A DNA stretch of 64,000 nucleotides from an uncultured virus (IMG/VR IMGVR_UViG_3300001605_000029) (lineage: Duplodnaviria; Heunggongvirae; Uroviricota; Caudoviricetes): positions 1 through 64,000 of the IMG/VR virus record IMGVR_UViG_3300001605_000029; one strand, written 5' to 3'. Shown piece by piece: positions 1 to 47,175 of this stretch (its first letter is position 1; each line of letters starts with the position of its first letter). A model generated the notes under the pieces. The model was given only the letters and a program-made list of their open reading frames with translations, was not told where the DNA came from and ran no database searches. A program made the position numbers and the translations under genes.

Positions 1-39
1 CTGTGCCAACCCAGACCAATTACGGGATCTAAGTTGACA

Positions 40-63
40 CTATCGTTTACCTGAACGTTTCAT
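40..63 (-). CDS. Putative leader minigene MKRSGKR(TAG)
   Basis: ATG at 63, GAGGT Shine-Dalgarno at 70-74, directly behind a consensus promoter; frame stays open past the TAG to the window edge. Confidence 0.35.
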   Translation of the reverse strand: MKRSGKR

Positions 64-91
64 GTCATTACCTCTTTTGTTTAAAAAATTA

Positions 92-120
92 ATTATACAA
101 CCTTTTGCAGTAGTTGTCAA
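92..120 (-). promoter_or_regulatory. sigma70-type promoter
   Basis: TTGACA-17 bp-TATAAT, perfect consensus. Confidence 0.8.
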
Positions 121-129
121 CTGTTTTCT

Positions 130-204
130 TGGCGCCCACATATGGAATCGAACCACAATCCCCGGCTTCGTAGACCAGTGTATTATCCATTATACTATGC
201 GGGC
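130..204 (-). tRNA. tRNA-Arg(ACG)
   Basis: Cloverleaf, loop CTACGAA, TTCGA T-loop, encoded CCA. Confidence 0.9.
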
Positions 205-209
205 AAAAT

Positions 210-280
210 TGGTTGCGGGGGAAGTATTCGAAACCTCTGGGCCGAGCTTATGAGACTGACCGATCGCCTGAATCCCCGCA
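210..280 (-). tRNA. Atypical tRNA-Met/fMet-like (CAT)
   Basis: TGCGGGG/CCCCGCA acceptor, loop CTCATAA, CCA; reduced D-arm and weak anticodon stem. Confidence 0.6.
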
Positions 281-286
281 ATACAC

Positions 287-357
287 TGGTGCACCTAACG
301 GGAATCGAACCCGTCTACTTCTGGCTTCAAATCCAGCTAGTAAACCATTCCAGCGCA
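287..357 (-). ncRNA. Degenerate tRNA-like RNA (TTG-containing loop)
   Basis: Good T-arm (ACGGG TTCGATT CCCGT) and CCA; imperfect acceptor, no clear D-arm, irregular anticodon loop. Confidence 0.5.
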
Positions 358-363
358 TAAATC

Positions 364-617
364 TGGCTTCGTTAGCAGGACTCGAACCTGCGATAAGGGC
401 TCTAAATCGCGTATGCTGGGTGCCCCCGTGTTTCCCAAAGTTACCCTCACATCCCCTCAGCGCCTTATCTCACTTTCGTCTATTGCAACCTGTTCCGCAC
501 TTCCCGGACTCACAGTGTTTGGTTTTTTACAGCCTACGCGATTGTTATTGCAATATCTTACTGGTGCCTTATCTCACCTACTCAATGCTACTCTACCTTC
601 CTCTACACTATAACGAA
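364..617 (-). ncRNA. 254-nt tRNA-like RNA with large structured insert
   Basis: 5' TTCGTTA pairs with 3' TAACGAA-G-CCA; T-arm GCAGG TTCGAGT CCTGC; insert contains AATCGCGTA/TACGCGATT and repeated GTGAGATAAGGC. Confidence 0.65.
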
Positions 618-624
618 ATAAACT

Positions 625-702
625 TGGTGGACGATAGTGGAATCGAACCACTGCCACGGCAGGGTTACTGCCGCCTGTTATCCTTTACAACAGTCATCGC
701 CC
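625..702 (-). ncRNA. tRNA-like RNA with G3.U70 acceptor and non-canonical anticodon arm
   Basis: GGGCGAT/ATCGTCC-A-CCA, T-arm, 5-bp D stem, 7-bp stem GCGGCAG/CTGCCGT around TAACC. Confidence 0.65.
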
Positions 703-788
703 ATATAGAAACACACTATGGGAGGGTCCATAGTCATACCCGAAACCTAGCGTCGGGGCACATCACCTCAATCGGCGTGCTTTTATAT
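703..788 (-). ncRNA. Structured RNA with AAAGCACGC/GTGTGTTT closing stem (copy A)
   Basis: Long terminal helix plus internal hairpins CCCGA/TCGGG and CTATGG/CCATAG. Confidence 0.5.
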
Positions 789-928
789 GGTGTAGTAAAC
801 AGGATTCGAACCTGCCTAGTCATCCGTTTTCTTCAATGGGTAACGTTACCTCCCATCGCCATATGCCCCTCGGATTAATTAGATCCTACTCACATACAGA
901 CAAACAACTTGTCAACCAAACTTACCAC
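788..928 (-). ncRNA. 141-nt tRNA-like RNA with G3.U70 acceptor
   Basis: GTGGTAA/TTACTAC-A-CCA and T-arm GCAGG TTCGAAT CCTGT; enlarged body without canonical anticodon arm. Confidence 0.65.
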
Positions 929-934
929 ATAAAT

Positions 935-1010
935 TGGTGGAAGATATCGGAATCGAACCGATCAGGCTATCTGCTTGCAAAGCAAATCCGGGTGCCCAAG
1001 CCCATCCCCC
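935..1010 (-). tRNA. tRNA-Ala(TGC)
   Basis: Loop TTTGCAA, G3.U70, CCA. Confidence 0.88.
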
Positions 1011-1026
1011 ATTTAAAAACTCTTTG

Positions 1027-1102
1027 CTCCGCATCTGGGTAACGATCCCAGCTAAACACGGATTAACAGTCCGGCCCATGCACCATGCTCGGGTTCTGCG
1101 GA
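1027..1102 (-). tRNA. tRNA-Asn(GTT), no encoded CCA
   Basis: Loop CTGTTAA, T-loop ATCGTTA, flanking inverted repeat. Confidence 0.75.
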
Positions 1103-1125
1103 GCAAAGAATTCTCTTTGCGTGTT

Positions 1126-1200
1126 TGGCGGTCCCAAGGGGTAACGATCCCCTTCTTCTAGCGTGACAGGCTAGTGTGCGTCCATGAACACTTTGAGACC
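1126..1200 (-). tRNA. tRNA-Asp(GTC)
   Basis: Loop CTGTCAC, T-loop ATCGTTA, G discriminator, CCA. Confidence 0.85.
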
Positions 1201-1298
1201 TAAATTCAGACCCTTGTTTTGATAAAGCAGACAATGGCTAGATTTTACTGCTTTTACTCTACACACTTTTCTTTGTGTAAAAACTCTTTCGAGATTCT

Positions 1299-1385
1299 TG
1301 GTGGAGACGACTGGAGTCGAACCAGTAGTGCCTTTCGGGCGGCGGATTTACAGTCCACTGGGGTTACCAATTTTCCTACATCTCC
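1299..1385 (-). tRNA. tRNA-Tyr(GTA)
   Basis: Loop CTGTAAA, long variable arm, CCA. Confidence 0.9.
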
Positions 1386-1392
1386 ATAAACT

Positions 1393-1442
1393 TGGTGGAG
1401 GTCGTTACACTTATCAAGTGTCGGTGATTAGCCTTGACCCCC
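1393..1442 (-). ncRNA. 50-nt mini-tRNA lacking a T-arm
   Basis: GGGGGTC/GACCTCC-A-CCA acceptor (G3.U70) and ACAC TTGATAA GTGT anticodon-like hairpin. Confidence 0.6.
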
Positions 1443-1449
1443 ATAAACT

Positions 1450-1525
1450 TGGCGCCGTCGACGGGAATCGAACCCGCCTAAATCTGATAGACAATCAGGT
1501 GCCCTACCCAGAGGACTACAACGGC
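1450..1525 (-). tRNA. tRNA-Asp(GTC), second copy
   Basis: Loop TTGTCTA (pyrimidine at 37), CCA. Confidence 0.85.
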
Positions 1526-1530
1526 AAAAC

Positions 1531-1629
1531 TAATAACACGAGCATAACATTAACCAGTTATGCTCGCCACTCTCATCCCAAGCCGGCGGGGAGACTGAAT
1601 GCCATCCTACAGTACGTCGAGTGTTGTTA
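1531..1629 (-). ncRNA. Structured RNA with AACAACAC/GTGTTATT closing stem (copy D)
   Basis: Terminal helix plus 9-bp hairpin GAGCATAAC/GTTATGCTC. Confidence 0.45.
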
Positions 1630-1632
1630 ACT

Positions 1633-1707
1633 TGGTACTCCGGACGGGTATCGATCCCGCTTCTCCACCTTGAAAGGGTAGCGTCCTAGCCACTAGACGA
1701 CCGGAGT
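1633..1707 (-). tRNA. tRNA-Glu(TTC)
   Basis: Loop CTTTCAA, T-loop ATCGATA, CCA. Confidence 0.87.
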
Positions 1708-1712
1708 ATAAT

Positions 1713-1825
1713 TCACTATATGCAAACACACTAAACAAATCGTGCCTCCCTAGTTTGTCGCTAAGTTCCAACATGAGGATCAAGTACGGTTCGGCGTACC
1801 ACGATAGTGTGTTTACATATAGTGA
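1713..1825 (-). ncRNA. Structured RNA with 21-bp closing stem (copy B)
   Basis: TCACTATATGTAAACACACTA/TAGTGTGTTTGCATATAGTGA with internal ATCGTG/CACGAT and GTACG/CGTAC helices. Confidence 0.55.
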
Positions 1826-1893
1826 CTGCTTCCCAGCAGTATATATGTATTTTACGTTTTTAAAGAACACAGTTAATTTCTTAACATGTGTTT

Positions 1894-1922
1894 ATTGTAG
1901 CAAAGTTTTTTGACTTTGTCAA
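1894..1922 (-). promoter_or_regulatory. sigma70-type promoter inside tRNA array
   Basis: TTGACA-17-TACAAT. Confidence 0.7.
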
Positions 1923-1960
1923 TAAGTATTTTGTTGTACTTTTACAACACTACTAACACT

Positions 1961-2034
1961 TGGTGCGGGGTAAGGGAATCGAACCCTTAACTACTGGGTG
2001 GAAGCCAGTGATCTTACCATTAAACGAACCACGC
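1961..2034 (-). tRNA. tRNA-Gly(TCC)
   Basis: Loop CTTCCAC, CCA. Confidence 0.9.
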
Positions 2035-2041
2035 ATACGTT

Positions 2042-2116
2042 TGGCCCCTGAGGTTACTGTCGAAAGTAACATTCCCAACTATTAACAAGGCTTGCGCGGG
2101 CCTGTCAAACTCAAGG
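2042..2116 (-). ncRNA. Aberrant tRNA-like RNA
   Basis: CCTTGAG/CTCAGGG-G-CCA acceptor, T-like arm GTTACT TTCGAC AGTAAC, one long hairpin replacing the D and anticodon arms. Confidence 0.5.
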
Positions 2117-2123
2117 ATAAAAT

Positions 2124-2199
2124 TGGTGCAACCTGTAGGGATCGAACCTACTTCAATGGCTCTTCAGACCACCGCTATGACCACATCAGCTAAAGTTGC
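2124..2199 (-). tRNA. tRNA-Phe(GAA)
   Basis: Loop CTGAAGA, CCA. Confidence 0.9.
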
Positions 2200-2205
2200 A
2201 TTGTT

Positions 2206-2279
2206 TGGTGCCCCATGACAGAATCGAACTGCCGTAACCTGATTACAAAACAGGTGTAATGCCATTATACTAATAGGGC
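2206..2279 (-). tRNA. tRNA-Thr(TGT)
   Basis: Loop TTTGTAA, CCA. Confidence 0.9.
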
Positions 2280-2284
2280 GAAAT

Positions 2285-2362
2285 TGGAATAGCGGGTGAG
2301 ATTCGAACTCACGGTTTTACGGATTTGCAATCCGATGCATTGGGCCTCTCTGCCACCGCTAC
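2285..2362 (-). tRNA. tRNA-Cys(GCA)
   Basis: Loop TTGCAAA, U discriminator, CCA. Confidence 0.88.
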
Positions 2363-2371
2363 ATAAAAGCT

Positions 2372-2447
2372 TGGTCTCCATACTAGGATTCGAACCTAGA
2401 CCACACGACCCCAAATCGCGGATGCAACCAGGTAACACTTTACGGAG
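2372..2447 (-). tRNA. tRNA-Pro(TGG)
   Basis: Loop TTTGGGG, CCA. Confidence 0.9.
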
Positions 2448-2457
2448 ATATAAAATT

Positions 2458-2531
2458 TGGTTCCTCCAACAAGAATCGAACTTGTAATGACCGGTTATCA
2501 GCCGATTGTTATACCATTTAACTATAGAGGA
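2458..2531 (-). tRNA. tRNA-Ile(GAT)
   Basis: Loop CTGATAA, CCA. Confidence 0.88.
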
Positions 2532-2543
2532 ATAAACTTATTA

Positions 2544-2618
2544 GGGGTGACCTACGGGTACCGACCCCGTTCTATCACTTTCACAGAGTGAGGTGCTAAA
2601 CCTTTACACTAAGGCCAC
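2544..2618 (-). tRNA. tRNA-His(GTG), atypical
   Basis: Loop CTGTGAA, C discriminator; ends CC(T), T-loop GTCGGTA, no encoded G-1. Confidence 0.75.
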
Positions 2619-2638
2619 ACCTAATAAGTCTAATAATT

Positions 2639-2712
2639 TGGCACGGGAACTAGGGCTCGAACCTAGAACGACAGAGTCAAAGTCTGTTGTGTTACCATTA
2701 CACCATTCCCGA
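2639..2712 (-). tRNA. tRNA-Gln(TTG)
   Basis: Loop CTTTGAC, CCA. Confidence 0.88.
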
Positions 2713-2720
2713 ACAAAACT

Positions 2721-2794
2721 TGGCGTACCCACTAGGACTCGAACCTAGACTGACGGTTTTGGAGACCGCGATGCTGCCATTACACTATGGATAC
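2721..2794 (-). tRNA. tRNA-Trp(CCA)
   Basis: Loop CTCCAAA, CCA. Confidence 0.9.
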
Positions 2795-2801
2795 ATTAAC
2801 T

Positions 2802-2875
2802 TGGTGCGGGGTAAGGGAATCGAACCCTTGACTGAACGTTGGCAACGTTCGGTTATACCATTTAACTAACCACGC
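2802..2875 (-). tRNA. tRNA-Gly(GCC)
   Basis: Loop TTGCCAA; acceptor/T-arm identical to Gly(TCC) copy. Confidence 0.9.
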
Positions 2876-2882
2876 ATTGAAT

Positions 2883-2972
2883 TGGCGGAGCGTGATGGAA
2901 TCGAACCATCACCGGCTACAAACCAGTGGAACAGTTTTCAAGGCTGCTTGTTCACCATGAACTCCACACTCC
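2883..2972 (-). tRNA. tRNA-Ser(TGA)
   Basis: Loop CTTGAAA, long variable arm, CCA. Confidence 0.88.
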
Positions 2973-2980
2973 ATAACTTT

Positions 2981-3058
2981 TGGTCTCCATGGCACGATTC
3001 GAACGTGCAGCCTCCTCGTTCCAAACAAGGCCGTCTACCAGATTGACATTACACAGAG
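2981..3058 (-). tRNA. tRNA-Pro(TGG), second copy
   Basis: Loop TTTGGAA (A37), CCA. Confidence 0.85.
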
Positions 3059-3066
3059 ATTAAATT

Positions 3067-3141
3067 TGGCTCCCCAGCGTGGGATCGAACCACGGACCAA
3101 TTGATTAACAGTCAACTACTCTACCGCTGAGCTACAAGGGA
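3067..3141 (-). tRNA. tRNA-Asn(GTT), second copy
   Basis: Loop CTGTTAA, CCA. Confidence 0.92.
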
Positions 3142-3148
3142 ATAAATT

Positions 3149-3223
3149 TGGTACCGGATGCGAGATTCGAACTTGCGACCAACGCCTTATCAAGGCGCTG
3201 CTCTACCACTGAGCTAACCCGGT
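3149..3223 (-). tRNA. tRNA-Ile(GAT), second copy
   Basis: Loop TTGATAA, CCA. Confidence 0.9.
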
Positions 3224-3228
3224 AAAAT

Positions 3229-3310
3229 TGGTGGATGCGGTAAGATTTGAACTTACACAGTCGAAACGGGAAGGTTACAGCTTCTTGGGCTCGCCAATGC
3301 CAGCACATCC
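3229..3310 (-). tRNA. tRNA-Tyr(GTA), second copy
   Basis: Loop CTGTAAC, long variable arm, CCA. Confidence 0.85.
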
Positions 3311-3313
3311 AAA

Positions 3314-3388
3314 TATTCTAAAACACACTATCATCTATGATGCGACACTTGATTCAGAGTCAAGCCGTTTTAAGTATGTTTTAGAATA
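3314..3388 (-). ncRNA. Structured RNA with 16-bp closing stem (copy C) carrying an anticodon-like hairpin
   Basis: TATTCTAAAACATACT/AGTGTGTTTTAGAATA enclosing CTTGA CTCTGAA TCAAG. Confidence 0.55.
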
Positions 3389-3389
3389 C

Positions 3390-3530
3390 CCTCTATTGCT
3401 AGAGGATATGTTAGGGTCAATGCCCTAACCAGGAGTCTTACTAATCGGTTATCGCCCGACGTTCATGTATCCTGTCCGCCCATTTACAGCAGTGTTTAGA
3501 GTGCGCTGTCAGGATCTCGTTCCCTGGCCA
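3390..3530 (-). ncRNA. Candidate multi-helix ncRNA at head of tRNA array
   Basis: Nested helices CCAGG/CCTGG, ATCCTG/CAGGAT, ACAGC/GCTGT, TCGG/CCGA, GTTAGGG/CCCTAAC. Confidence 0.45.
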
Positions 3531-3670
3531 TATAGGACTTATTACACACTTTTGCTTTACTTGGCAAGCTCTAAAGCCTGCCTTTCTCGCTGTTTAGCGT
3601 TTACTGAAGTGTACATTTTGTTTCTTTCAATCTTGTCAGCAATTAATTTCTTAAATGCCTCCGGACTTAA

Positions 3671-3699
3671 AGTATAACATCTTGTGTACTCTCTGTCAA
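3671..3699 (-). promoter_or_regulatory. sigma70-type promoter
   Basis: TTGACA-17-TATACT. Confidence 0.7.
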
Positions 3700-3733
3700 C
3701 TACTTTCTTTCTATCTATCATCTTTCCTTGCGG

Positions 3734-3769
3734 AAAACAAAAACCCCAGGGTGTTTAGTCCTGGGGTCC
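3734..3769 (-). terminator. Intrinsic terminator of putative attenuator
   Basis: GGACCCCAGG-loop-CCTGGGGTT followed by TTTGTTTT. Confidence 0.8.
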
Positions 3770-3795
3770 TTTTGAAGTTGCTTGCTAGTTACATT

Positions 3796-3951
3796 TTAGG
3801 CGTAACCTGCTCCTTCTTGGGACCCCTGGGTAATCTCCGGTGTGCGATCATATGATAGACTCCCACACTCAATAGATAACCAATTGGAGGCTACAAAGCC
3901 TGCCTGTTTGGGCATCGTATTAAATTGTTGATGTCTGTTAAACGATTGCAT
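3796..3951 (-). CDS. Putative attenuator leader peptide, 51 aa
   Basis: MQSFNRHQQFNTMPKQAGFVASNWLSIECGSLSYDRTPEITQGSQEGAGYA*; 3' end overlaps an antiterminator helix. Confidence 0.65.
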   Translation of the reverse strand: MQSFNRHQQFNTMPKQAGFVASNWLSIECGSLSYDRTPEITQGSQEGAGYA

Positions 3952-4007
3952 TTTGTTCTCTTTTAAAAACTTTTTACATTGACAGCACCATTGCTGCCTA
4001 TGTTTTA

Positions 4008-4121
4008 ATTGTATATTTATTTAGTCTTGTTGTCAACCACTATTTGCATTTCTGGAAAAATAATTTCTAACAATACTAAACATCATGTGCTTATTGTATG
4101 ATAGTTTTATTTAGCTGTCAA
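4008..4121 (-). promoter_or_regulatory. Tandem sigma70-type promoters upstream of leader
   Basis: TTGACA-17-TACAAT at 4008-4036 and 4093-4121, each with TAAATA in the spacer. Confidence 0.75.
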
Positions 4122-4159
4122 GCAAAAAACTACCATATAATACGGCAAAAATTGCCAAT

Positions 4160-4405
4160 TTACGATTCGCTTGAAATTAGTAAGTGTTTACCAATTTCGA
4201 ACAATCCCACACTTCCCGGAAGATCCATAGCAGCAACATGAATTTGACAAACTCCATCGTCATCCATTGAACATGCTACAAATTCCTTGATCTCACCAGA
4301 TTCGATTCCTGTCTTTATATATTCAATTACTTCAAGCATTGCTTTTTTTTGTTCTTCTTCAAATTGCTTGTCTTTACGCTTGTCGTTGATATTGATAATT
4401 TCCAT
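4160..4405 (-). CDS. Hypothetical protein
   Basis: 81-aa ORF with RBS, downstream of clpP. Confidence 0.75.
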   Translation of the reverse strand: MEIININDKRKDKQFEEEQKKAMLEVIEYIKTGIESGEIKEFVACSMDDDGVCQIHVAAMDLPGSVGLFEIGKHLLISSES

Positions 4406-14710: not shown

Positions 14711-16780
14711 TCACTTCGATGTAGCCTTGTAAGTACCGTCCCAGTCTGCAGGAAGATCTCTTGTACGCATCTCGGCAATACGCTCTTGCCATAGTGTATA
14801 GTAGTCGTCCATCTTGCCGTCAAACTCGCCTGTAAGTTCTTGACATAGCGCAACGGCCTTATCCCACTCTTGTTTGCGATAGTATTCTAACATCAGTTCA
14901 TGATGCTCTCTGGCCGAGATCCAATCTGCGGCCACAGTAACATCTGGATTGTAGAACACTGTAAAGATATTAACGCCGACGGTCTTACCTTTAACTGCAA
15001 TGCAGTCTAAAGGAATTGTAAAGTAGTTGTCTCCTACTCGAGCTTGTGTAAATTCGCTGATGATGATTAGCACACCATAGTTCTTAGTCTGCCCTTCTAG
15101 TCGTGCTGTTAAACTAACTGAGTCGCCTAGTACGTCATATCCGAATCGATCCTTACTGCCAATGTTACCGATCAGTGTCGGACCTGTGTTAATACCCAGT
15201 CCACAACCTACTAATGGCTTGCCTTCTTTAGTAAGCTCAATGTTAAACAGTTCAACAGCGTGTAACATTTCTAGTCCAGTTCGAACAGCGGCCAATACAT
15301 GATCGGGATCTTGTTCTTCTTGAATAGGAGCACCGTGTACGTGTAATGAAGCATCACCGATGAACTTGATTAGACAACCGTTGTTGCGTAGTATAGGCTC
15401 CGCAATTGCAGTCATGTAACGATTCATAGTGTTGGTAAATGCTACAACGTCATCTCCGTAAGTTTCACCTAGTCCAGTAAAGTTGCGCATGTCGCTCATT
15501 ATGATTGATAAATCTTTCTTCTCACCGCCTAGTTTAATAAAGCTAGGATCTTTTTGTAATCGTTCAACAATAACAGGGTTTACATAAGATCCAAACTGTT
15601 TCTTAATTGCAGACTTTTGTAAGAACTCACTTACAAACTTGATACCATAGGCATGCAAAGCGACCAAAGTTGTGCCAACTGCAAAGGCAGTAGCATCGAA
15701 TAAGAATAGAAGACTGCTGTAAGCATAGATACTGCCAGCAATGCCACCGCCAATAATAACAACTGTCGCTGCCAATCCCGCATAAGTCCACCTCGTTAAA
15801 AATAAAAGCAATATGCCGGCAATTAGAATAGCCATAACTTCCAAGTCATCTGCATATCCAGGACGCTGAATACTAGTACCGGATAATAGAGTACCTAACA
15901 AGCTGGCCTGCATATCCTGCGGCCAAATCTCGCCACGAGCAGTAGCTACTGGTTGAACTAGTCCCGCTGCACTCAGACCCACAATAACAACTTCGCCGTT
16001 GAAGTCTTTGGGCAATTTAGCAAGGCTATGTTGTTTAGATTGTTGACTCCAATCGATCCATACTTGGCTTAATTGATCTACATTGATACGATTCAGCTTG
16101 GGAATACGCACTGCTTCAACGCCCATGTCTGTAATCTTAACCTGTATTTTTGTATCGCCTGCTGCTAGTCTAAGTGTTTCTAATCCGATGGCAGGATGCA
16201 CCGTTTCTCCGCTTAGTATTAACAATGGCATACGGCGAACAACACCGTCTATTTCAGGAAAGGTATTTACAACACCCACACCGGCCGCACGTTCTTCTAG
16301 CATAGGCACGTTAGCGATAATGCCTGGATATTCTACTAGACTGCCTTGTGGATCAATTCCCACAATTTGTACAGCACTTCCAAATGTCTTATTCTTACCC
16401 GCAGTATTGGCAACTTGCGGCAGCACTACTGGATATTTTTCTAATGCTTGGGCCAGTTTATTATCTTGACCAAACCTATCTGCTTCAGGCATAAGGATAT
16501 TGAGCACAACAAGGCCAGCGTTTCTGTCATATAGGTCTTTAATAATGTCAGCATATAGTCCTCGAGGAAATGGAAATTGTCCATACTTGTCCAATGCAGC
16601 TTCATCTATATTAACAGTATGTACGGGAATGTCTTGTTTGGGTTGGCTAGTAATCAGTTGATCAAAATAGCGTAGTCTAACTGATTCTACAAATGCAGGA
16701 TCTGCAAATCTAACACCGGCAATTAGTACCAAGGTAATTAATGCCAGCCAGGGGCTTAGTAATATTTTTTTCATATACAT
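14711..16780 (-). CDS. CHASE2-domain class III adenylate cyclase
   Basis: VNIDEAAL..YGQFPFPR and DGVVRR (CHASE2), three TM helices, SDMRNFT, KFIGDA, YDVLGDSVSLTARLE. Confidence 0.93.
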   Translation of the reverse strand: MYMKKILLSPWLALITLVLIAGVRFADPAFVESVRLRYFDQLITSQPKQDIPVHTVNIDEAALDKYGQFPFPRGLYADIIKDLYDRNAGLVVLNILMPEADRFGQDNKLAQALEKYPVVLPQVANTAGKNKTFGSAVQIVGIDPQGSLVEYPGIIANVPMLEERAAGVGVVNTFPEIDGVVRRMPLLILSGETVHPAIGLETLRLAAGDTKIQVKITDMGVEAVRIPKLNRINVDQLSQVWIDWSQQSKQHSLAKLPKDFNGEVVIVGLSAAGLVQPVATARGEIWPQDMQASLLGTLLSGTSIQRPGYADDLEVMAILIAGILLLFLTRWTYAGLAATVVIIGGGIAGSIYAYSSLLFLFDATAFAVGTTLVALHAYGIKFVSEFLQKSAIKKQFGSYVNPVIVERLQKDPSFIKLGGEKKDLSIIMSDMRNFTGLGETYGDDVVAFTNTMNRYMTAIAEPILRNNGCLIKFIGDASLHVHGAPIQEEQDPDHVLAAVRTGLEMLHAVELFNIELTKEGKPLVGCGLGINTGPTLIGNIGSKDRFGYDVLGDSVSLTARLEGQTKNYGVLIIISEFTQARVGDNYFTIPLDCIAVKGKTVGVNIFTVFYNPDVTVAADWISAREHHELMLEYYRKQEWDKAVALCQELTGEFDGKMDDYYTLWQERIAEMRTRDLPADWDGTYKATSK

Positions 16781-20905: not shown

Positions 20906-21814
20906 TTACTTTTTGCCTGCTCCAGCATCCTTTCCGTCGCTGGGCTGTGCTGACGATGCGGAAGGTGCTTTGGCGGCTCCTTCACGTGGGGTTTCCTTTT
21001 GAACCAACTCATTTGTTCGCTCCTTGAATTTCCACAAGTTTTGACGCTCGCCTTTGTTGATTAATTCTACAACTGCGGTTTCAATCGCTGAACGCAGTGC
21101 ATAATTACCTGGCTCGTTAAATGTTTGGCTGCTGTCAAATTCAAATGCTCGTGTTGCCTGATTGAAAAATTTCAATGCCGTAGTGCCATCAGCAGTACTG
21201 AGCAAGTTCTTTTCCACGGTAACAGTGGTTAATACTTCCCCGGTTTGAACACTGACTAGGCGTAAACTGATAACCACGATATCTTGAGTGTAGGCAGTTT
21301 GCGCTCCAATACCTAACCAACGTGCTCCAGTACCACCTGTTAGTGTGTTGCTGTTGTAGTCAATAATGCCGCCTTCTAGAATAACACCGGCCATTTGCAA
21401 TGGAGGTAAAGGTTTAGCATTCGCGCCTTCGTAGATCTCACGTGTCTGTTTGATCATCTGACGCTCTTTTAACAAGTTGTCAAGACCAACACGTTCAACA
21501 ACTGTGAACCATTGACGGTTTCCGACTTCTTGCAAACTTTTCATCAAGTATGCTTCTGCACCTTGTGTAACTGCGGTCGAGAACAAACTCAATGTTGAAC
21601 TTGGCTTACGCTGTCCTGTCAGGTCTTTGAAGCCATATACTGCCACTGTTACTGCTGGACCTGCTGGGCTGGGTACGTTTGCAAAACTTTTATTGATCGT
21701 TTCACTGACTCGAGCTTCTTCTTTAATCTGTGTGCTGCCCCATGGACGTACAGTTGAGCAGCCAGCTAGGGTTACAATTGCTAGTGTGATTAAGGATAAT
21801 TTAATTGCTTTCAT
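20906..21814 (-). CDS. csgG: Curli secretion lipoprotein CsgG
   Basis: Lipobox LAGC, VAVYGFKDLTGQRK, FSTAVTQG, WFTVVERVGLDNLLKERQ. Confidence 0.93.
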   Translation of the reverse strand: MKAIKLSLITLAIVTLAGCSTVRPWGSTQIKEEARVSETINKSFANVPSPAGPAVTVAVYGFKDLTGQRKPSSTLSLFSTAVTQGAEAYLMKSLQEVGNRQWFTVVERVGLDNLLKERQMIKQTREIYEGANAKPLPPLQMAGVILEGGIIDYNSNTLTGGTGARWLGIGAQTAYTQDIVVISLRLVSVQTGEVLTTVTVEKNLLSTADGTTALKFFNQATRAFEFDSSQTFNEPGNYALRSAIETAVVELINKGERQNLWKFKERTNELVQKETPREGAAKAPSASSAQPSDGKDAGAGKK

Positions 21815-23019: not shown

Positions 23020-23700
23020 TTAGATTTCCGGAAACAAACACTGTTGTATAAACACTCGTACATCTTCCTCACTTAGTCCCAAGCTAACCATAACTTTCGG
23101 AGTGTGTGGATTCATTTTTTGATTTTGCGCATAATAATTCTGTGCATCAGTAGTGTTGTTAGCTGTGTTATTAGACTCGCCTACGGTATCTAGATAATGA
23201 TTGATTCCGTGTCTAGCCATAGTAGCTAACTGAGTCAATTCGTTCGGGTCACTAACATTTCCGGCAGCAATCATATTGCTACTAAAGATTCTTTCGGCCC
23301 AATCTGGCAATTTTCTCTTTTTATTCCATTCTAGTTTGTTGGCTTCGTCGGCAAAATATTCTAACATAGGATGTTCGAGATCCCCTGCAGGACTATAATC
23401 AAAGAAACATCCTGTGATTTTATTCTTCCCAGCAATTACATCAAACCCGAAAATGGGTGCTGGGTTGTGAGTATGGGGGAACACGCAGCAATGCATCATC
23501 CAAAGACCTCGAGTCTCGCGAGCATCAACTACGTCGATGTGTGCTCGGCGATATTGACTACTAGCCCATACTTTATTGACCCAGCCCGGCTGATTAAATC
23601 GATCCATTCCCGGCTCGTGTATGATACTACCGGTAGCATAAAATTTACTCTCAAAATACTGTTCGATTTCGATTAGAGTATTCCAAACATTACTTTCCAT
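23020..23700 (-). CDS. pcyX: Ferredoxin-dependent bilin reductase (PcyA/PcyX-like)
   Basis: MHCCVFP...PIFGFDVIAG...DYSP, RKLPDWAERIFS, QKMNPHT. Confidence 0.85.
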   Translation of the reverse strand: MESNVWNTLIEIEQYFESKFYATGSIIHEPGMDRFNQPGWVNKVWASSQYRRAHIDVVDARETRGLWMMHCCVFPHTHNPAPIFGFDVIAGKNKITGCFFDYSPAGDLEHPMLEYFADEANKLEWNKKRKLPDWAERIFSSNMIAAGNVSDPNELTQLATMARHGINHYLDTVGESNNTANNTTDAQNYYAQNQKMNPHTPKVMVSLGLSEEDVRVFIQQCLFPEI

Positions 23701-24235
23701 TATATAAATCTCGCATCATTTTAATAGCGTACTCAAAAGCTACACGAGCTTCGTCGCCGAGATCGTCTGTAAGAGTATCTCTAATGGCTAATTTCATTGC
23801 ATTGGCATTTTCAAAATCATAAAACTTGCCGCTACTAATGTGCGCTACCTGTTTCTTAATAATTTGCCCACCGAACAAATCTCCCATATGTCGGCAATAC
23901 AAATGAGCTTTAACTAGTTGTTTGCGGTTGGGATCGTTTCCTAGCAAATGTAGATATGTTTGATATTCTAATGTTGCTGGTGTTAGATAACAATATGATC
24001 CGTCGTCTAATTCTAAAAAATCAGCAAGGATACCTTTTAGTCTAGGGAGGTCAGGCATAGTATCAAGAAACCCTTGACGCTTGCAGTACCATTCAATTGG
24101 ATCATAAATCGCCAGCAAGTTATATAGATAATTTCTATAATCTTCTTTGCTTATTTTTCCACTAAGTAACATTTTGGCAAACGTAGTAGTTTCTGCTTCG
24201 TGATGTAGATCACTAGTTATTTCTCTTAAACTCAT
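23690..24235 (-). CDS. hemO: Heme oxygenase
   Basis: LREITSDLHHEAE, AHLYCRHMGDLFGGQII, EARVAF. Confidence 0.92.
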   Translation of the reverse strand: MSLREITSDLHHEAETTTFAKMLLSGKISKEDYRNYLYNLLAIYDPIEWYCKRQGFLDTMPDLPRLKGILADFLELDDGSYCYLTPATLEYQTYLHLLGNDPNRKQLVKAHLYCRHMGDLFGGQIIKKQVAHISSGKFYDFENANAMKLAIRDTLTDDLGDEARVAFEYAIKMMRDLYNGK

Positions 24236-25364: not shown

Positions 25365-27265
25365 TTAGTCTTTCTTTTCAGTGAAAGTAGCATCGACTAC
25401 ATTATCATCCTGTGCAGCTTCGGGCTGAGCTTGTGCTTGTTCCTTAGCTTGCTTTTTATCCAACAACACTTTCATGGCTGGATAAACCTTGTTAAGCTCT
25501 TCTGTAATTTTTTCTTTGTCGTTGCCTTTGACAGCGTCGTCAACAGCTGAAATTACAGTTTCAAGCTCATTAATCTCGGACTCGGTCATTTCGGATCTAA
25601 ACTCTTCTAGATCTTTTTTAACTTCGTGCATTTGTGCTTCAGCGCTGTTGCGGGTTTCAATTAGCTCTCGAGCTTTTTTATCACTCTCGGCATTGGCCTC
25701 GGCCTCTTGAACCATACGCTCAATTTCTTCCTTACTTAGACCACTATCACTCTTAATGGTGATTTTGTTTTCTTTTCCGGTGTTCTTGTCTTTGGCACTG
25801 ATATTCATAATGCCGTTGGCATCTATATCGAACGTAACTTCAATTTGTGGCATACCTCGACGTGCCGGTGCAATACCTTCTAGATTGAATTCCCCCAATG
25901 CCTTGTTATATTGGAAAAGTTCTCTCTCACCTTGACCGACCTTGATTGTAACTGCTAATTGGTTGTCTTCGGCAGTACTAAAGGTTTGACTGGCTTTGGT
26001 GGGAATGGTTGTATTCTTTTGAACCAACTTGGTAAAGACTCCGCCCATTGTTTCAATGCCGAGGCTTAGAGGAGTAACGTCAAGCAATAGTACGTCATTT
26101 CGATCGCCGCCTAACACTGCACCTTGGATAGCGGCACCAGCTGCAACTGCTTCGTCTGGGTTAACATCCTTGCGCGGAGCTTTGCCGAACATTTTCTCAA
26201 CGGCTTCTTGTACTTTAGGCATACGTGTTTGGCCACCGACGAGAATAACTTCGTCAATGTCGTTGGCAGTTACCCCAGCATCTCGCAATGCAATACGGCA
26301 AGGTTCCAAACTGCGTTGTACAAGATCGTCTACTAATGCTTCGAGTTTAGATCGACTTAGTTTAACAACTAGATGTTTTGGACCCNNTTGCGTCAGCAGT
26401 AACATAAGGCTAAGTTAACTTCTGTCTGAGCCGAACTTGAAAAGTTCAATTTTTTGCTTTTTACAGTCAGCTATCTTTAANACGTTGTAACGCCAACACA
26501 TCGTTCTTAAGATCGACACCAGACTCTTTCTTGAATTCGTCTACCAAGTAATCCATGATGCGTTGGTCAAAGTCTTCACCACCCAAGAACGTGTCACCGT
26601 TAGTGCTTAATACTTCGATTTGTTTATCGCCGTCGACATCCGCAATTTCAATGATCGATACGTCGAAAGTACCGCCACCAAGGTCGTAAACAGCAATCTT
26701 GCGATCGCCTTTACTAGACTTATCGACGCCATAGCTAAGAGCTGCCGCAGTAGGCTCGTTAATAATACGCAGTACTTCCAGCCCGGCGATTTGACCAGCA
26801 TCTTTAGTCGCCTGTCTTTGGCTGTCGTTAAAGTATGCCGGAACTGTAATAACTGCTTGGGTAACTTCATGTCCTAAATAGTCCTCTGCGGTTTTCTTCA
26901 TTTTTCGAAGAACTTCTGCTGACACTTGTGGAGGAGCCAATTCTTTATCTTGTGCCCGAATCCATGCATCGCCATTCTTTGCTTCCATAATAGTATATGG
27001 CATCAAGTCGATGTCTTTTTGCACAGCCTGTTCTTTAAACTTACGACCGATTAATCGCTTGCTGGCGTAGATTGTGTTTTTGGGATTTGTTACTGCTTGA
27101 CGCTTTGCACTTGCGCCAACAAGAATGTCAGAATCTGTGTATGCTACAATACTTGGTGTAGTACGAGCACCTTCTGAATTTTCAATAACTTTGGGGATTC
27201 CGTTTTCTACAACGGTCTACACATGAGTTTGTGGTACCTAAGTCGATACCGATGATCTTTGACAT
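25365..27265 (-). CDS. dnaK: DnaK (Hsp70), broken by Ns/frameshifts
   Basis: [35 protein letters not shown]. Confidence 0.96.
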
Positions 27266-39420: not shown

Positions 39421-39506
39421 ATTGTATGTTTATTTACGCTATAGATCAATGGTTTTCCATAGGTTTTAACTAATATATTTTTATTGACGTTATAGGTTTT
39501 ATTAAT
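39421..39506 (-). promoter_or_regulatory. ahpC promoter with OxyR-like box
   Basis: ATTA-N7-CTAT-N7-ATAA-N7-TTAG-N7-CTAT just upstream of TTGATC-17-TACAAT. Confidence 0.6.
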
Positions 39507-39513
39507 AACATCA

Positions 39514-39540
39514 AAAGAAAAGCACCCAAAGGTGCTTTCT
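39514..39540 (-). terminator. Terminator after tmRNA
   Basis: AAAGCACC TTTG GGTGCTTTT. Confidence 0.8.
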
Positions 39541-39544
39541 ATTA

Positions 39545-39810
39545 TTTTCTGTTACGAGGTATAATTACCCTAAGCAGTGTTTAGGCTGCTAATGCGAACT
39601 GTGAGTCGTTTGCGTTTACTTTGTTGTGCTTCTGCGACCGGGTTACCCCAATCCTAACGGCTTCTACATTGCCGGACTGTCCATTTCCGTACTCTTGACC
39701 CAATCGATAGCCTGGTCATCCCCACCTAAATATACATTATACACTTAGGTGGAGATGGTGGGAGTCGAACCCACGTCTTGAATCCTTTTCTGTCTACTTC
39801 ATACAGTCTT
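39545..39810 (-). ncRNA. ssrA: Circularly permuted (two-piece) tmRNA
   Basis: T-arm/3' acceptor CATCTCC-A-CC precedes 5' GGGGATG (G3.U70); tag frame ANDSQFALAA* at 39581-39613; outer ends approximate. Confidence 0.92.
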
Positions 39811-39884
39811 AACTTACATATAAAAATGTATCCACACAAACGTCACAATTAGAATTGCTACAATAAGGTGGTACAGTTTCATAA

Positions 39885-44655: not shown

Positions 44656-45672
44656 TTATAGTTTACAGGATTCGCATGACTCTTCGTCGTCGAAGTCAAT
44701 AGGCTCTAACATTGTGGGTGATTCTTCTGCCGCTGCTTTACTTCCTGCTTTATTAATCAGACTGTAATAAAAAGTCTTTAATCCCCACATGTGAGCCTGC
44801 ATTAGATTTTTAGCAATTAGTGTAGTGGGTACTTTACGATCTGGAAAATGTGCTGGATTGTAGAAAGTGTTAGTACTAATACTCTGATCTGTGTAGGCTG
44901 CAATAACAGCCGCAGTCTTAATATAGCCTTCGCAATCTTTCTGTTCCCACATTAACTGATACTTGTTCTTTAACTTGTGATACTCTGGGACAACTTGTAC
45001 GAAAGATCCTGCTTTTGATTCTTTAGTACTAATCAAGCTCATAGGCATCTCAATACCGTTGGTACTGTTGATAACAACACTACTACTTTCAACAGGAGCA
45101 ACTGCACCGTTAGTGGCATTACGAACTCCGTACAGTTTCATTTCAGCACGTAGCGTTTCCCAATCCAGTTCAGGAGCAAAGTCAGTGAGTTCATTCACGC
45201 CAGCGGCACGTAGTTCCCAAGGAAACACACCTTGGCCGTAACGTGTTTTATCTGATCCCAAGCATCGGCCACGCTCTCGAGCCAGTTCCACACTCATCTC
45301 TGTCAAGTAAAAGCTCTGATGTTCCTGCCAGGTTTTGACTTCGGCCAGTGCATCGGCTTCTCCGTATTTCAAACCACGCTTGGCGTGCCAGTAGGCCAAA
45401 TTGGTGATACCAATACCTAGTGGGCGGATCTCGTCGTTGCTTAGTTTAGATTGAATACTAAGAAAATCTTGGTAATCGAGAATATTATTAAGACTACGAT
45501 GAAGAATCCGACAAGCACGGCGCATGTCTTCTGGATTACGGAACGCACCCCAATTGATTGAACCCAATGTGCAAAGGGCAATACGTCCCTCTGCTTCGTC
45601 AATTTCATAGTATTCATATTCTTCATCTAACTCTTCGGGTAGACATTCTATTTCTTCGTATAATTTATTCAT
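44656..45672 (-). CDS. nrdA: Ribonucleotide reductase alpha subunit, C-terminal fragment
   Basis: IALCTL, APVESSS, LKTFYY, terminal CESCKL. Confidence 0.93.
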   Translation of the reverse strand: MNKLYEEIECLPEELDEEYEYYEIDEAEGRIALCTLGSINWGAFRNPEDMRRACRILHRSLNNILDYQDFLSIQSKLSNDEIRPLGIGITNLAYWHAKRGLKYGEADALAEVKTWQEHQSFYLTEMSVELARERGRCLGSDKTRYGQGVFPWELRAAGVNELTDFAPELDWETLRAEMKLYGVRNATNGAVAPVESSSVVINSTNGIEMPMSLISTKESKAGSFVQVVPEYHKLKNKYQLMWEQKDCEGYIKTAAVIAAYTDQSISTNTFYNPAHFPDRKVPTTLIAKNLMQAHMWGLKTFYYSLINKAGSKAAAEESPTMLEPIDFDDEESCESCKL

Positions 45673-46311
45673 TCTTCAACCTTTTGTTTTGTTTCTTCCG
45701 ATTTCCATGCTCTTGGATCAACTGTTTCACCTGTAAGTTCATATCTGAAGTCTGGATCGNAAACCATATAGCCCAGTTTGTTCCATTTGATTACACCATC
45801 GTCAAACAAAAAGATACAGCCACGACACATGCAGAAACTGGCACCATTGTCACTCATCACATTACCGTTGACTGTGCCCACATACTTGACTACATTGCCT
45901 TTATACATTTCTCTCAATGCTTCGTAGTAGTCAATCATTCTTCAACTCTAGCAGGTTTGAAGAACGGTGTAGACCCCATCATACGGAGGAACACCAATCC
46001 GTTGGGCAAGGTGTCTAAACTACCTCGGTGTCGTTCGATCCTGACCTCACCGTTGTGTTCTGTGCCGTAGAAAAACTGATCCGTAGCACCACCGTCTATT
46101 TGTTGTTTAAAATATTCGTTCATTCTTCAACTCCGAAATCTTGTTTAGTTTTCCAAATAGCAAAATCTAAATCGCCATCACAATTTTCCATATTGTGTAG
46201 ACATTCCCGCACAATCAACTCGGCGAACTTTTCCTTACTGAAGATTAACTCGCCATCATACTCAACAAGACTCTGTGCGGCAAACTTTTCTAACATTGGT
46301 ATCTTACTCAT
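45669..46311 (-). CDS. Three small hypothetical genes inside split nrdA (45669-45938, 45935-46123, 46120-46311)
   Basis: ATGA-coupled; all end in VEE*. Confidence 0.65.
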
Positions 46312-47132
46312 ACATTTCCCAATCCTACTCTACTATAACCTAACTTTGATTTAATTTCTTTACGGTCTGCTCTATTTTTCAATGTTCTACCTTGTGTGTA
46401 TGTTGGGTTTTCTTTAAGAAACTTATCTAATTCATCTGCTTGAAGTTTTACATTATCAACACCATTTGTCGCCCAACGATGACTCGAAGTAGCAGACGAT
46501 GCTTGCTTACGCTGTTCTTCACTCCTATGATAGGGATCATACTTAACTGGGGTAGATAACTTCTTATTGACTTCACTAATCAGTTGTTTCAACCCACTAT
46601 CGATTCTATTCTTCAACGTCATTTGACTAACACCGAGTTGTTCTTTGAGGACAGATTCAATCTCTTTTCTCAACAAATAATTTCCTTGTTTGTCGTTAGC
46701 AATACAAAACTGGACTACCGCATCAATTATCATATCCTTAGTAATGCTAGGTTTAGCGTTACTATTTTTCATACCTACTTGTAAATCTGATCGTAGTTTA
46801 CTAAGTTTTTTCATTCTTTTAGTTGAATATTTTTCAGTGGTGTTCCCACCGTCTCCGCCCTGAGTCATATTGTATCCATTTTTAAATGTATCAAACTGCT
46901 CAACATAAAAACACTCTTTCAGTTTTGCTTGTTCCTTTGTCTCTACTTCGCATAACTGTTCAGAAACAATATTTTCAGCACCATACTTGCGAATAGCACG
47001 ATGAAAATGTCGATCAGAACTATTTTGAGAATCTTCAATGTGCTCTAATAATCTGTCAGACATAGTTTTCTTTGTGTATCCTATATATTTCTTGCTGTTT
47101 AAAGTATGGCAGTAAACAATGTATTTCGTCAT
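46308..47132 (-). mobile_element. GIY-YIG homing endonuclease
   Basis: YIVY...KYIGYT, R..EH, GYNMTQGGDG. Confidence 0.88.
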
Positions 47133-47169
47133 AGTAATCTCCTACACTTATTTATGACTGAGATACTAT
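47131..47169 (-). promoter_or_regulatory. RBS-sequestering hairpin with late-promoter-like motif in loop
   Basis: ATAGTATCTC...ATAAATA...GAGATTACTAT covering GGAG and ATG. Confidence 0.65.
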
Positions 47170-47175
47170 TGCCTA

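Follow-up and report, generated by a model that had tools for sequence, protein, structure and literature searches.

An armless, 50-nt tRNA-like unit in a phage tRNA array combines an alanine-type acceptor with an isoleucine-type anticodon arm and may act as a non-decoding tRNA mimic

Introduction

Armless mitochondrial tRNAs have been described in Romanomermis culicivorax, where, according to the parts of PMC6158502 that deal with them, they are 42 and 47 nt long, with a 4-bp anticodon stem in tRNA-Arg and connectors of 5 + 9 and 8 + 5 nt. Alanine identity offers a second point of comparison: recognition by alanyl-tRNA synthetase (AlaRS) rests on the acceptor end, and the bacterial determinants given in the section on alanine identity (section 22) and in Table 1 of PMC9976931 are A73, G2-C71, G3.U70, and G4-C69. 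For the anticodon branch of tRNA-Ile, the same Table 1 (PMC9976931) gives C29-G41, G34, A35, U36, A37, and A38. A third comes from the conflict between phages and their hosts, in which tRNA anticodon arms are cleaved by anti-phage nucleases, against which phages deploy tRNAs of their own, as set out in the pertinent sections of PMC13056530. Counters based on tRNA are treated in parts of PMC10264068, PMC11464382, and PMC11555353, and include a T5 tRNA-Lys that counters PARIS (PMC11464382), a phage tRNA-Tyr that counters a retron (PMC11555353), and anticodon-loop variants of phage tRNAs directed against tRNA-cutting defence (PMC10264068). No armless or minihelix-like phage tRNA gene is described in the literature that we searched.

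We analyzed a stretch of 64,000 nt (hereafter, the window) of an IMG/VR virus record that is 72 kb long and rated ~20% complete, near-complete relatives being 349-367 kb. ARAGORN found 21 tRNAs and 1 tmRNA in the window. The first 3.3 kb consist of a minus-strand tRNA array, which contains the 21 ARAGORN tRNAs, 20 of them with an encoded CCA, together with several tRNA-like units missed by the scanner. One of these units, only 50 nt long, is the subject of this report.

Anatomy of the 50-nt unit

An earlier note on this DNA had singled out positions 1393-1442 as a T-armless mini-tRNA with an alanine acceptor and an isoleucine-like anticodon loop. The sequence given there was reproduced exactly by reverse complementation and reads, on the minus strand, GGGGGTC AAGGCTAATCACC GACAC-TTGATAA-GTGTA AC GACCTCC A CCA, with element position p corresponding to window position 1443-p. 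The features of the unit and its surroundings are as follows.

1393..1442, minus strand: armless tRNA-like unit, 50 nt (sequence; the single short stem-base-CCA unit of the array; 47/50 copy in contigs L152, L189, L195, and L211)
1436..1442, minus strand: acceptor 5' strand GGGGGTC, positions 1-7 (7/7 paired with 1397-1403, G3:T70; pair probability 1.0)
1423..1435, minus strand: 5' connector, 13 nt, AAGGCTAATCACC, positions 8-20 (possible remnant of a D-arm 5' half)
1406..1422, minus strand: tRNA-Ile(GAU)-like anticodon arm GACAC-TTGATAA-GTGTA, positions 21-37 (4 Watson-Crick pairs and G.A)
1404..1405, minus strand: 3' connector AC, 2 nt (AAC, 3 nt, if A37 is unpaired), standing where the variable loop and T arm would be (same in the second lineage)
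1397..1403, minus strand: acceptor 3' strand GACCTCC, positions 40-46 (sequence and pairing)
1393..1396, minus strand: discriminator A73 and encoded CCA (sequence)
1443..1449, minus strand: upstream spacer AGTTTAT (sequence)
1386..1392, minus strand: downstream spacer AGTTTAT, the same as upstream (sequence)
1441..1452, minus strand: 12-nt direct repeat CCAAGTTTATGG, upstream copy (bounds the 57-nt presence/absence difference)
1384..1395, minus strand: 12-nt direct repeat CCAAGTTTATGG, downstream copy (bounds the 57-nt presence/absence difference)
1450..1525, minus strand: tRNA-Asp(GTC), upstream neighbour (ARAGORN and Rfam)
1299..1385, minus strand: tRNA-Tyr(GTA), downstream neighbour (ARAGORN and Rfam)
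1894..1922, minus strand: promoter-like site upstream of this part of the array (11/12 consensus with TG; called from the consensus match alone)

The order along the minus strand is tRNA-Asp-CCA, AGTTTAT, the 50-nt unit, AGTTTAT, and tRNA-Tyr, so that the spacing typical of a tRNA gene, as claimed in the earlier note, was found in the form of an exact array register with identical 7-nt spacers. The acceptor features of a canonical tRNA are present, namely a 7-bp stem (7/7 pairs in both lineages described below), a discriminator, and CCA. The remainder departs from the canonical cloverleaf (RF00005), the D arm being replaced by 13 nt and the variable loop and T arm by 2-3 nt. The label 'T-armless' was hence right as to the T arm and incomplete as a description, inasmuch as the D arm is missing too; 'armless' is the term used here. 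The 7-nt loop TTGATAA fits an anticodon loop, with U33 and a purine at 37, and is indeed the same as that of the tRNA-Ile at 3149-3223; its stem has four Watson-Crick pairs and G.A, compared with the canonical 5 bp. Taken together, the architecture is that of an armless tRNA (stem-bulge-stem, ~42-50 nt), found in a phage array and not in the metazoan mitochondrial context of the known examples. An antisense open reading frame at 1298..1630 (110 aa), which crosses three RNA genes, was rejected as spurious.

Chance occurrence and tRNA scanners

The minus strand of positions 1-3400 was scanned for stretches of 20-99 nt having a 7-bp stem (at most 2 G-T pairs per stem), one base, and CCA, and 21 were found. 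Nineteen were tRNA-sized (71-90 nt) and one of 65 nt (386-322) spanned two units, which leaves 1393-1442 as the sole short unit. Among 144 sources containing 1349 ARAGORN tRNAs, 96 such stretches of 40-66 nt lay outside tRNAs, and only 1393-1442 had a same-strand tRNA no more than 20 nt away on both sides. The 50-nt unit is a genuine gene-like unit in array register, beyond what chance would produce. Standard tRNA scanners had been expected to miss it, and this was borne out: ARAGORN made no call at 1393-1442 in default mode or in mitochondrial mode with default settings, and none of the 31 Rfam matches (E<=10) in window positions 1-4200 fell there, whether to the tRNA or to the tmRNA family.

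Other unusual units in the array and the window

Several further units of the array, all on the minus strand, are worth recording. The unit at 625-702, a tRNA-Val(AAC) according to ARAGORN, joins an Ala-type acceptor (G1:C72, G2:C71, G3:T70, A73) to normal D and T arms, and is thus a second Ala-type acceptor on a non-Ala body within the array; its anticodon region is odd, with a loop GTAACCC or, in the predicted fold, a 7-bp stem and 5-nt loop, and it is 96% conserved in the related locus L080 and, at E<=10, is not matched by the Rfam tRNA model. A cloverleaf resembling tRNA-Asn(GTT) at 1023-1109, with T loop ATCGTTA and without CCA, lies inside a unit at 1011-1125 in which its acceptor stem is extended into a long helix. 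Stretches 93-95% identical to 1023-1109 occur in 24 records of Acinetobacter T4-like phages, where they are unannotated or annotated as 'hypothetical protein'. The units at 361-624 and 703-934 have tRNA-like ends (acceptor strands, T arm) and ~150-190 nt of extra structured interior, which matched no Rfam intron or other family at E<=10, barring a weak partial match to the tmRNA family at 594-652. Three units (2042-2116, 210-280, and 3229-3310) are tRNA-sized, with a 7-bp acceptor stem and CCA and no ARAGORN call; 3232-3310 scores 27 bits, under the Rfam threshold. The conserved unit at 288-360, also found in L023 and L028, has a T arm, CCA, and a hairpin with the loop ATTTGAAG; it is without a D arm, its acceptor is poorly paired, and the hairpin stem shows a C-G to T-A change relative to the copy in relatives. 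Unusual T loops (ATCGTTA, ATCGATA, and GTCGGTA, not of the TTCGA type) occur in otherwise good tRNAs for Asp, Glu, and His (1126-1200, 1633-1707, and 2544-2618).

Array gene order is strongly shuffled among relatives. Related arrays (L032, L051, L064, L066, and many others) recurrently carry structured non-tRNA inserts directly upstream of tRNA-Tyr, one example being a unit of ~60 nt closed by GAGTTAC...GTAACTC and without CCA. Elsewhere in the window, a permuted (two-piece) tmRNA gene lies at 39490-39839 on the minus strand, with tag peptide ANDSQFALAA and acceptor GGGGATG/CATCTCC containing G3:T70. Auxiliary genes unusual for a phage are located at 23023-24235, 25368-27024, 44659-48648, 14714-16780, and 20909-21814; the set comprises a heme oxygenase adjoining a ferredoxin-dependent bilin reductase, an Hsp70 as two open reading frames, a ribonucleotide reductase large subunit split around a GIY-YIG gene, a CHASE2-cyclase, and a CsgG-like protein.

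Origin of the two halves

The acceptor of the unit was compared with those of array tRNAs. Eighteen distinct tRNAs matched it at >=11/15 positions, and 17 of the 18 were tRNA-Ala; the best reached 13/15, with a swapped 7:66 pair as the sole difference, whereas the tRNA-Ile(gat) acceptors of the arrays matched at <=6/15 positions. The pair G3:U70 was present in 32/32 distinct tRNA-Ala genes compared with 6/905 other tRNAs of these arrays. All four of the bacterial alanine acceptor determinants listed above are found both in the unit and in its copy from a second lineage; G20 of the alanine core is absent, as it is from minihelices. For the hairpin, the nearest of 540 distinct anticodon arms were tRNA-Ile(GAU) arms; the second-lineage hairpin is 16/17 identical to its nearest arm, and all 8 of its nearest arms are tRNA-Ile(gat). 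Every isoleucine determinant of the anticodon branch is present, with C-G at positions 23:35 and the loop U-U-G-A-U-A-A. The other isoleucine determinants are lacking: the acceptor pair C4-G69 is replaced by G-C at 4:69, and the core elements U12-A23, G16, U20, and U21 are absent with the D arm. The 'Ala acceptor' and the 'Ile-like anticodon loop' of the earlier note are therefore both strengthened, the former by the predominance of tRNA-Ala among the best matches and the near-exclusive G3:U70, the latter by the identity of the nearest arms. By these resemblances, the unit is a chimera of a tRNA-Ala-type acceptor and a 17-nt hairpin of tRNA-Ile(GAU) type.

The full set of alanine acceptor determinants is what would be expected if the unit were directed at AlaRS itself, that is, if it were an alanine minihelix active as a sink for host AlaRS or EF-Tu or as a translation-independent donor of activated alanine, with the Ile-like hairpin a mere structural cap. 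To go by the title of reference 119 of PMC9976931, minihelices can reportedly inhibit cell growth; the window also contains other Ala-type acceptors on unusual bodies (the unit at 625-702 and the permuted tmRNA). Such a role, however, leaves the copying of the tRNA-Ile arm (C29-G41, A37/A38) unexplained, no alanyl-transferase gene was recognized among the 47 open reading frames scanned, and the unit is dispensable in relatives, so we regard this explanation as unlikely. A search of the 72-kb record for AlaRS (PF01411) found none, which is uninformative for a record that is ~20% complete.

As for the 13-nt connector, its positions 9-16 fit the array-tRNA consensus at 9-16, a profile score reached by 817 of 20000 shuffles, and it is without a complementary 3' strand for a D stem. 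The connector is probably the remnant of a D-arm 5' half. A full-length parent tRNA with an Ala acceptor and GAU anticodon was found neither by pattern scans of IMG/VR and species genomes nor by covariance model in 94 sources and five related records. Derivation from a known tRNA by one large deletion found no support: against the distinct array tRNAs, the highest-scoring gapped alignment reached 28.4, below 26 of 30 controls with shuffled interiors, and because the score was below most controls, the colinear resemblance to one tRNA-Ala family was set aside as unproven.

Presence and absence in relatives

Assembly collapse and the presence of a full-length tRNA in relatives had both been named as grounds on which the unit might be dismissed, and the data speak against each. 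In a run from another study, a contig covers 1129-1479 with 0 differences, the unit included; because this independent run has it letter for letter, an assembly artefact of the source sample is excluded. In relatives, no full-length tRNA occupies the slot, which is empty: in the closest syntenic relatives (L022/L067 and L079/L080), tRNA-Asp is followed by a spacer alone and then by tRNA-Tyr. The unit is also absent from related records that are 100% and 97% complete. Contigs from three of the four runs examined pass directly from 1383 to 1441, omitting 57 nt, and 12 letters at the joint fit either side. An RNA run (X15) gave 4 contigs on the stretch, with a contig representing the relative's form without the unit and the same Asp-Tyr junction; this run is therefore uninformative as to expression of the unit. 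Since relatives and runs thus join tRNA-Asp to tRNA-Tyr without it, the unit plus one spacer constitutes a presence/absence difference bounded by the 12-nt CCAAGTTTATGG. Its absence from the closest relatives, including the 100% and 97% complete records, makes the unit an accessory cassette and, on the evidence of these genomes, a dispensable one.

This dispensability bears on the idea that the CCA-ended hairpin is a processing mark, giving RNase P or RNase E one more place to enter or cut and so aiding maturation of the neighbouring tRNAs. The layout is that of a minimal RNase P substrate in array register, as such a mark would require. Nevertheless, relatives and the RNA-library contig have the Asp-Tyr junction without the unit, so that the neighbours do not need it, and a cutting mark would require neither G3:U70 nor an Ile anticodon arm. 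We consider a processing mark quite improbable.

A second lineage

One metagenome pattern scan returned 86 stretches, of which 82 were chance occurrences and four were true copies of the unit (L152, L189, L195, and L211). The four are mutually identical over ~420 nt on each side and, for this reason, count as one lineage. The neighbours there are an Asn-like unit and tRNA-Ala, with the spacer ATTTTAT on both sides. Because a second phage lineage carries the unit between different neighbours, the unit, so far as these two arrays allow it to be judged, is not a fresh deletion product; the comparison likewise shows it to be mobile between array slots.

The window and second-lineage copies are identical at 47/50 positions (94%), differing by A8C, A24G, and T34C; between the two arrays, 15 pairs of tRNAs with a common anticodon have identities of 59-89%, all below the 94% of the unit. 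The connector is conserved at 12/13 positions, and the acceptor is paired at 7/7. Two of the three differences, A24G and T34C, change the inner-stem pair 24:34 from A-U in the window to G-C in the second lineage with pairing kept; among 3 random substitutions, a double change of this pair-preserving kind would arise with a probability of 0.004-0.016 on the structure drawn in the earlier note. A shuffle control for covariation, in which 258/500 shuffles reached the observed score, is uninformative because only two distinct sequences are available. Since the unit has clearly moved, the 94% identity could also reflect recent cassette transfer and not purifying selection.

The search in other phage arrays that the earlier note had recommended met with partial success: four metagenome contigs carry the unit, and none was found in IMG/VR or species genomes. 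Within IMG/VR, the exact acceptor with free interior gave 15 stretches, 0 of them homologous; the patterns of hairpin plus 3' end and of connector plus hairpin gave 0 each; Ala-type ends with the CTTGATAAG loop, at gaps of 10-30 and 5-35 nt, gave 13 stretches, 0 tRNA-like; and a search for Ala-type minis, whatever their interior, that precede an A-N-TTTAT spacer returned 16 stretches, in 0 of which the acceptor was 7/7 paired. Pattern scans of species genomes found 0 copies. Blastn in distant mode against INPHARED phages returned 20 records, none covering the unit, and blastn-short of the 50-mer against 142 loci gave no match longer than 14 nt. A covariance model (R1) searched against 94 sources (467,228 bases) gave good scores for the two known copies only, followed by two tRNA-Ala genes matched through the acceptor (E 0.12 and 0.87); in five related records searched in full, its one hit was a tRNA-Ile arm (E 0.9).

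These results can be weighed against the explanation that the unit is a neutral relic, namely a chimeric tRNA gene that decayed by two internal deletions, has lost its use, and persists and spreads only as it is small and flanked by recombination-prone CCA-spacer-GG junctions. Consistent with such an origin, the presence/absence difference is bounded by the 12-nt direct repeat and the form without the unit is common; the unit is absent from syntenic relatives and from the 100% and 97% complete records; the connector resembles a D-arm 5' half; and the other degenerate tRNA-like units of the array raise the prior for decay products. A relic would not be expected, however, to keep its acceptor 7/7 paired in both lineages together with full sets of alanine and isoleucine determinants, to show a compensatory change in its hairpin stem, or to be 94% conserved, above every one of the 15 bona fide tRNA pairs, a comparison that involves two lineages only. 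Nor was a full-length parent found by pattern scans and covariance model. Neutral decay is, in our estimation, possible but doubtful.

Predicted folding

The unit as a whole folds better than shuffled sequences (z = -2.84; 3/200 shuffles as good). The predicted optimum is a long irregular hairpin of -17.2 kcal/mol, in which the connector pairs with the loop and the hairpin 3' strand and the 'anticodon' is paired; the tRNA-like fold scores -12.0, the probability of the anticodon-like stem being 0.04-0.07 and that of the acceptor stem 1.0. When the connector was shuffled 2000 times, 20% of the sequences folded as well or better, and 67% left the anticodon-like hairpin in the optimum. Because one in five shuffled connectors does as well, the competing long hairpin is without support of its own; as a selected feature it is unsupported, if still conceivable. 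The compensatory change and the homology to tRNA-Ile arms lead us to favour the anticodon-arm fold over the long hairpin. A pseudoknot (15-18 with 27-30, plus a 22-25/33-36 stem) is compatible with both sequences, which offer no variation that would test it.

Folding is also relevant to the proposal that the unit is a true decoder, an armless adaptor charged with alanine (or isoleucine) and reading AUC/AUU on the ribosome. In its favour, the stem-bulge-stem shape and the length of 47 nt without CCA lie within the range that the pertinent part of PMC6158502 gives for armless R. culicivorax mitochondrial tRNAs, and the loop has U33, GAU, and A37. Armless tRNAs, however, depend on an EF-Tu extended at its C terminus and on a CCA-adding enzyme adapted to them, according to the sections of PMC12221289 on these factors. 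The 72-kb record contains no EF-Tu gene (PF00009), which says little at ~20% completeness. Moreover, the connectors are very lopsided (13-14 versus 2-3 nt), the predicted minimum-energy fold ties up the anticodon, and the unit lacks the IleRS determinant C4-G69 as well as the D-arm ones. A decoding role is very improbable on these grounds. An adaptor that mistranslates isoleucine codons as alanine in a bacterium, as suggested in the earlier note, is likewise unlikely, and we give scarcely any credence to the specific form in which the unit would be the first armless tRNA active in translation outside animal mitochondria, alanylated via G3:U70 and reading AUC/AUU with GAU. If a translation-active reading were true, a share of isoleucine codons would be read as alanine during infection, or special messages would be recoded.

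Proposed function as a tRNA mimic

The reading that we prefer is that the unit is a processed, probably alanylated, non-decoding tRNA mimic or decoy, carried as a horizontally shuffled small-RNA cassette; we suspect a working mimic in that the second lineage keeps the unit almost unchanged, and our confidence in the reading as a whole stops a little short of even. Counting against it are the predicted optimum fold, in which the 'anticodon' is paired, the dispensability of the unit, the chance that its 94% identity reflects recent transfer, and the presence of other degenerate tRNA-like units in the array. The unit would be co-transcribed within the polycistronic tRNA array and excised by the maturation enzymes of its neighbours, with RNase P cutting at G1 and 3' trimming proceeding to the encoded CCA. 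Host AlaRS may then charge it with alanine, since this enzyme reads the acceptor end alone; to go by the titles of references 110 and 119 of PMC9976931, minihelices are reportedly alanylated, and sequence-specific ones reportedly inhibit cell growth. Alanine identity would, for the same reason of being specified by the acceptor stem alone, be the natural choice for a minimal charged-looking RNA. With no D or T arm, and hence no elbow, the unit would be unfit as an adaptor for bacterial EF-Tu and the ribosome, and because armless tRNAs need adapted factors, decoding is not expected. A molecule of this kind that does not decode would therefore be a mimic that offers an isoleucine anticodon arm to a host factor: a stable, tRNA-looking RNA displaying that arm. 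Its likeliest role would be to serve, in phage-host conflict over tRNA, as decoy or sponge for some host factor by which the Ile arm is bound or cut. The decoy idea, which the earlier note had also raised, is plausible.

If the unit does act as a mimic, it would point to a host factor that recognizes the anticodon arm of tRNA-Ile(GAU). Evasion of anticodon nucleases by full-length replacement tRNAs has precedent, and to these the unit would add purpose-built tRNA mimics. More generally, as this unit shows, cassette-like exchange between phage tRNA arrays takes place at CCA-spacer junctions, and units of such a kind are overlooked by standard tRNA finders.

Comparison with known systems

The tRNA-like domain of tmRNA resembles the unit in its Ala-type acceptor with G3:U70, and the window also encodes a permuted tmRNA. 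That domain has a T arm and no anticodon arm, whereas the unit is the inverse, and the acceptor sequence differs from that of the tmRNA of the window. Anti-defence phage tRNAs are similar in being array genes with a likely value in conflict over host tRNA cleavage, but those described in the relevant parts of the sources cited above are full-length, decode, and replace the cut host tRNA, whereas the unit is an implausible decoder and would be a decoy.

In its acceptor helix with G3.U70, A73, and CCA, the features that AlaRS reads according to Table 1 and the section on alanine identity in PMC9976931, the unit is like the synthetic minihelix-Ala and microhelix-Ala substrates of references 110, 111, and 119 of that review. 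Those substrates are laboratory constructs capped by a T stem-loop, whereas in the unit, a natural gene, the cap is an Ile-type anticodon arm and charging is putative; if made and charged, it would be the natural counterpart of the synthetic alanine minihelix.

The closest likeness in shape is to the armless mitochondrial tRNAs of enoplean nematodes, such as tRNA-Arg and tRNA-Ile of R. culicivorax, which, as portrayed in parts of PMC6158502, PMC12221289, and PMC3579883, consist of an acceptor, a connector, a short anticodon stem with a 7-nt loop, and a second connector. Like the unit, they have no D or T arm, and at 42-47 nt without CCA they are close to its 47 nt. The armless mitochondrial tRNAs in those accounts are AU-rich animal decoders, with co-adapted EF-Tu and CCA-adding enzymes, whereas the unit belongs to the array of a bacterial phage and has an encoded CCA and a GC-rich 7-bp acceptor; its connectors are also very asymmetric and its identity elements mixed from two amino acids. 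For all its likeness to them, the unit belongs neither to the armless mitochondrial tRNAs nor to the synthetic alanine minihelices. If it is made and charged, reports of armless tRNA-shaped genes, so far confined to metazoan mitochondria, would for the first time extend beyond them.
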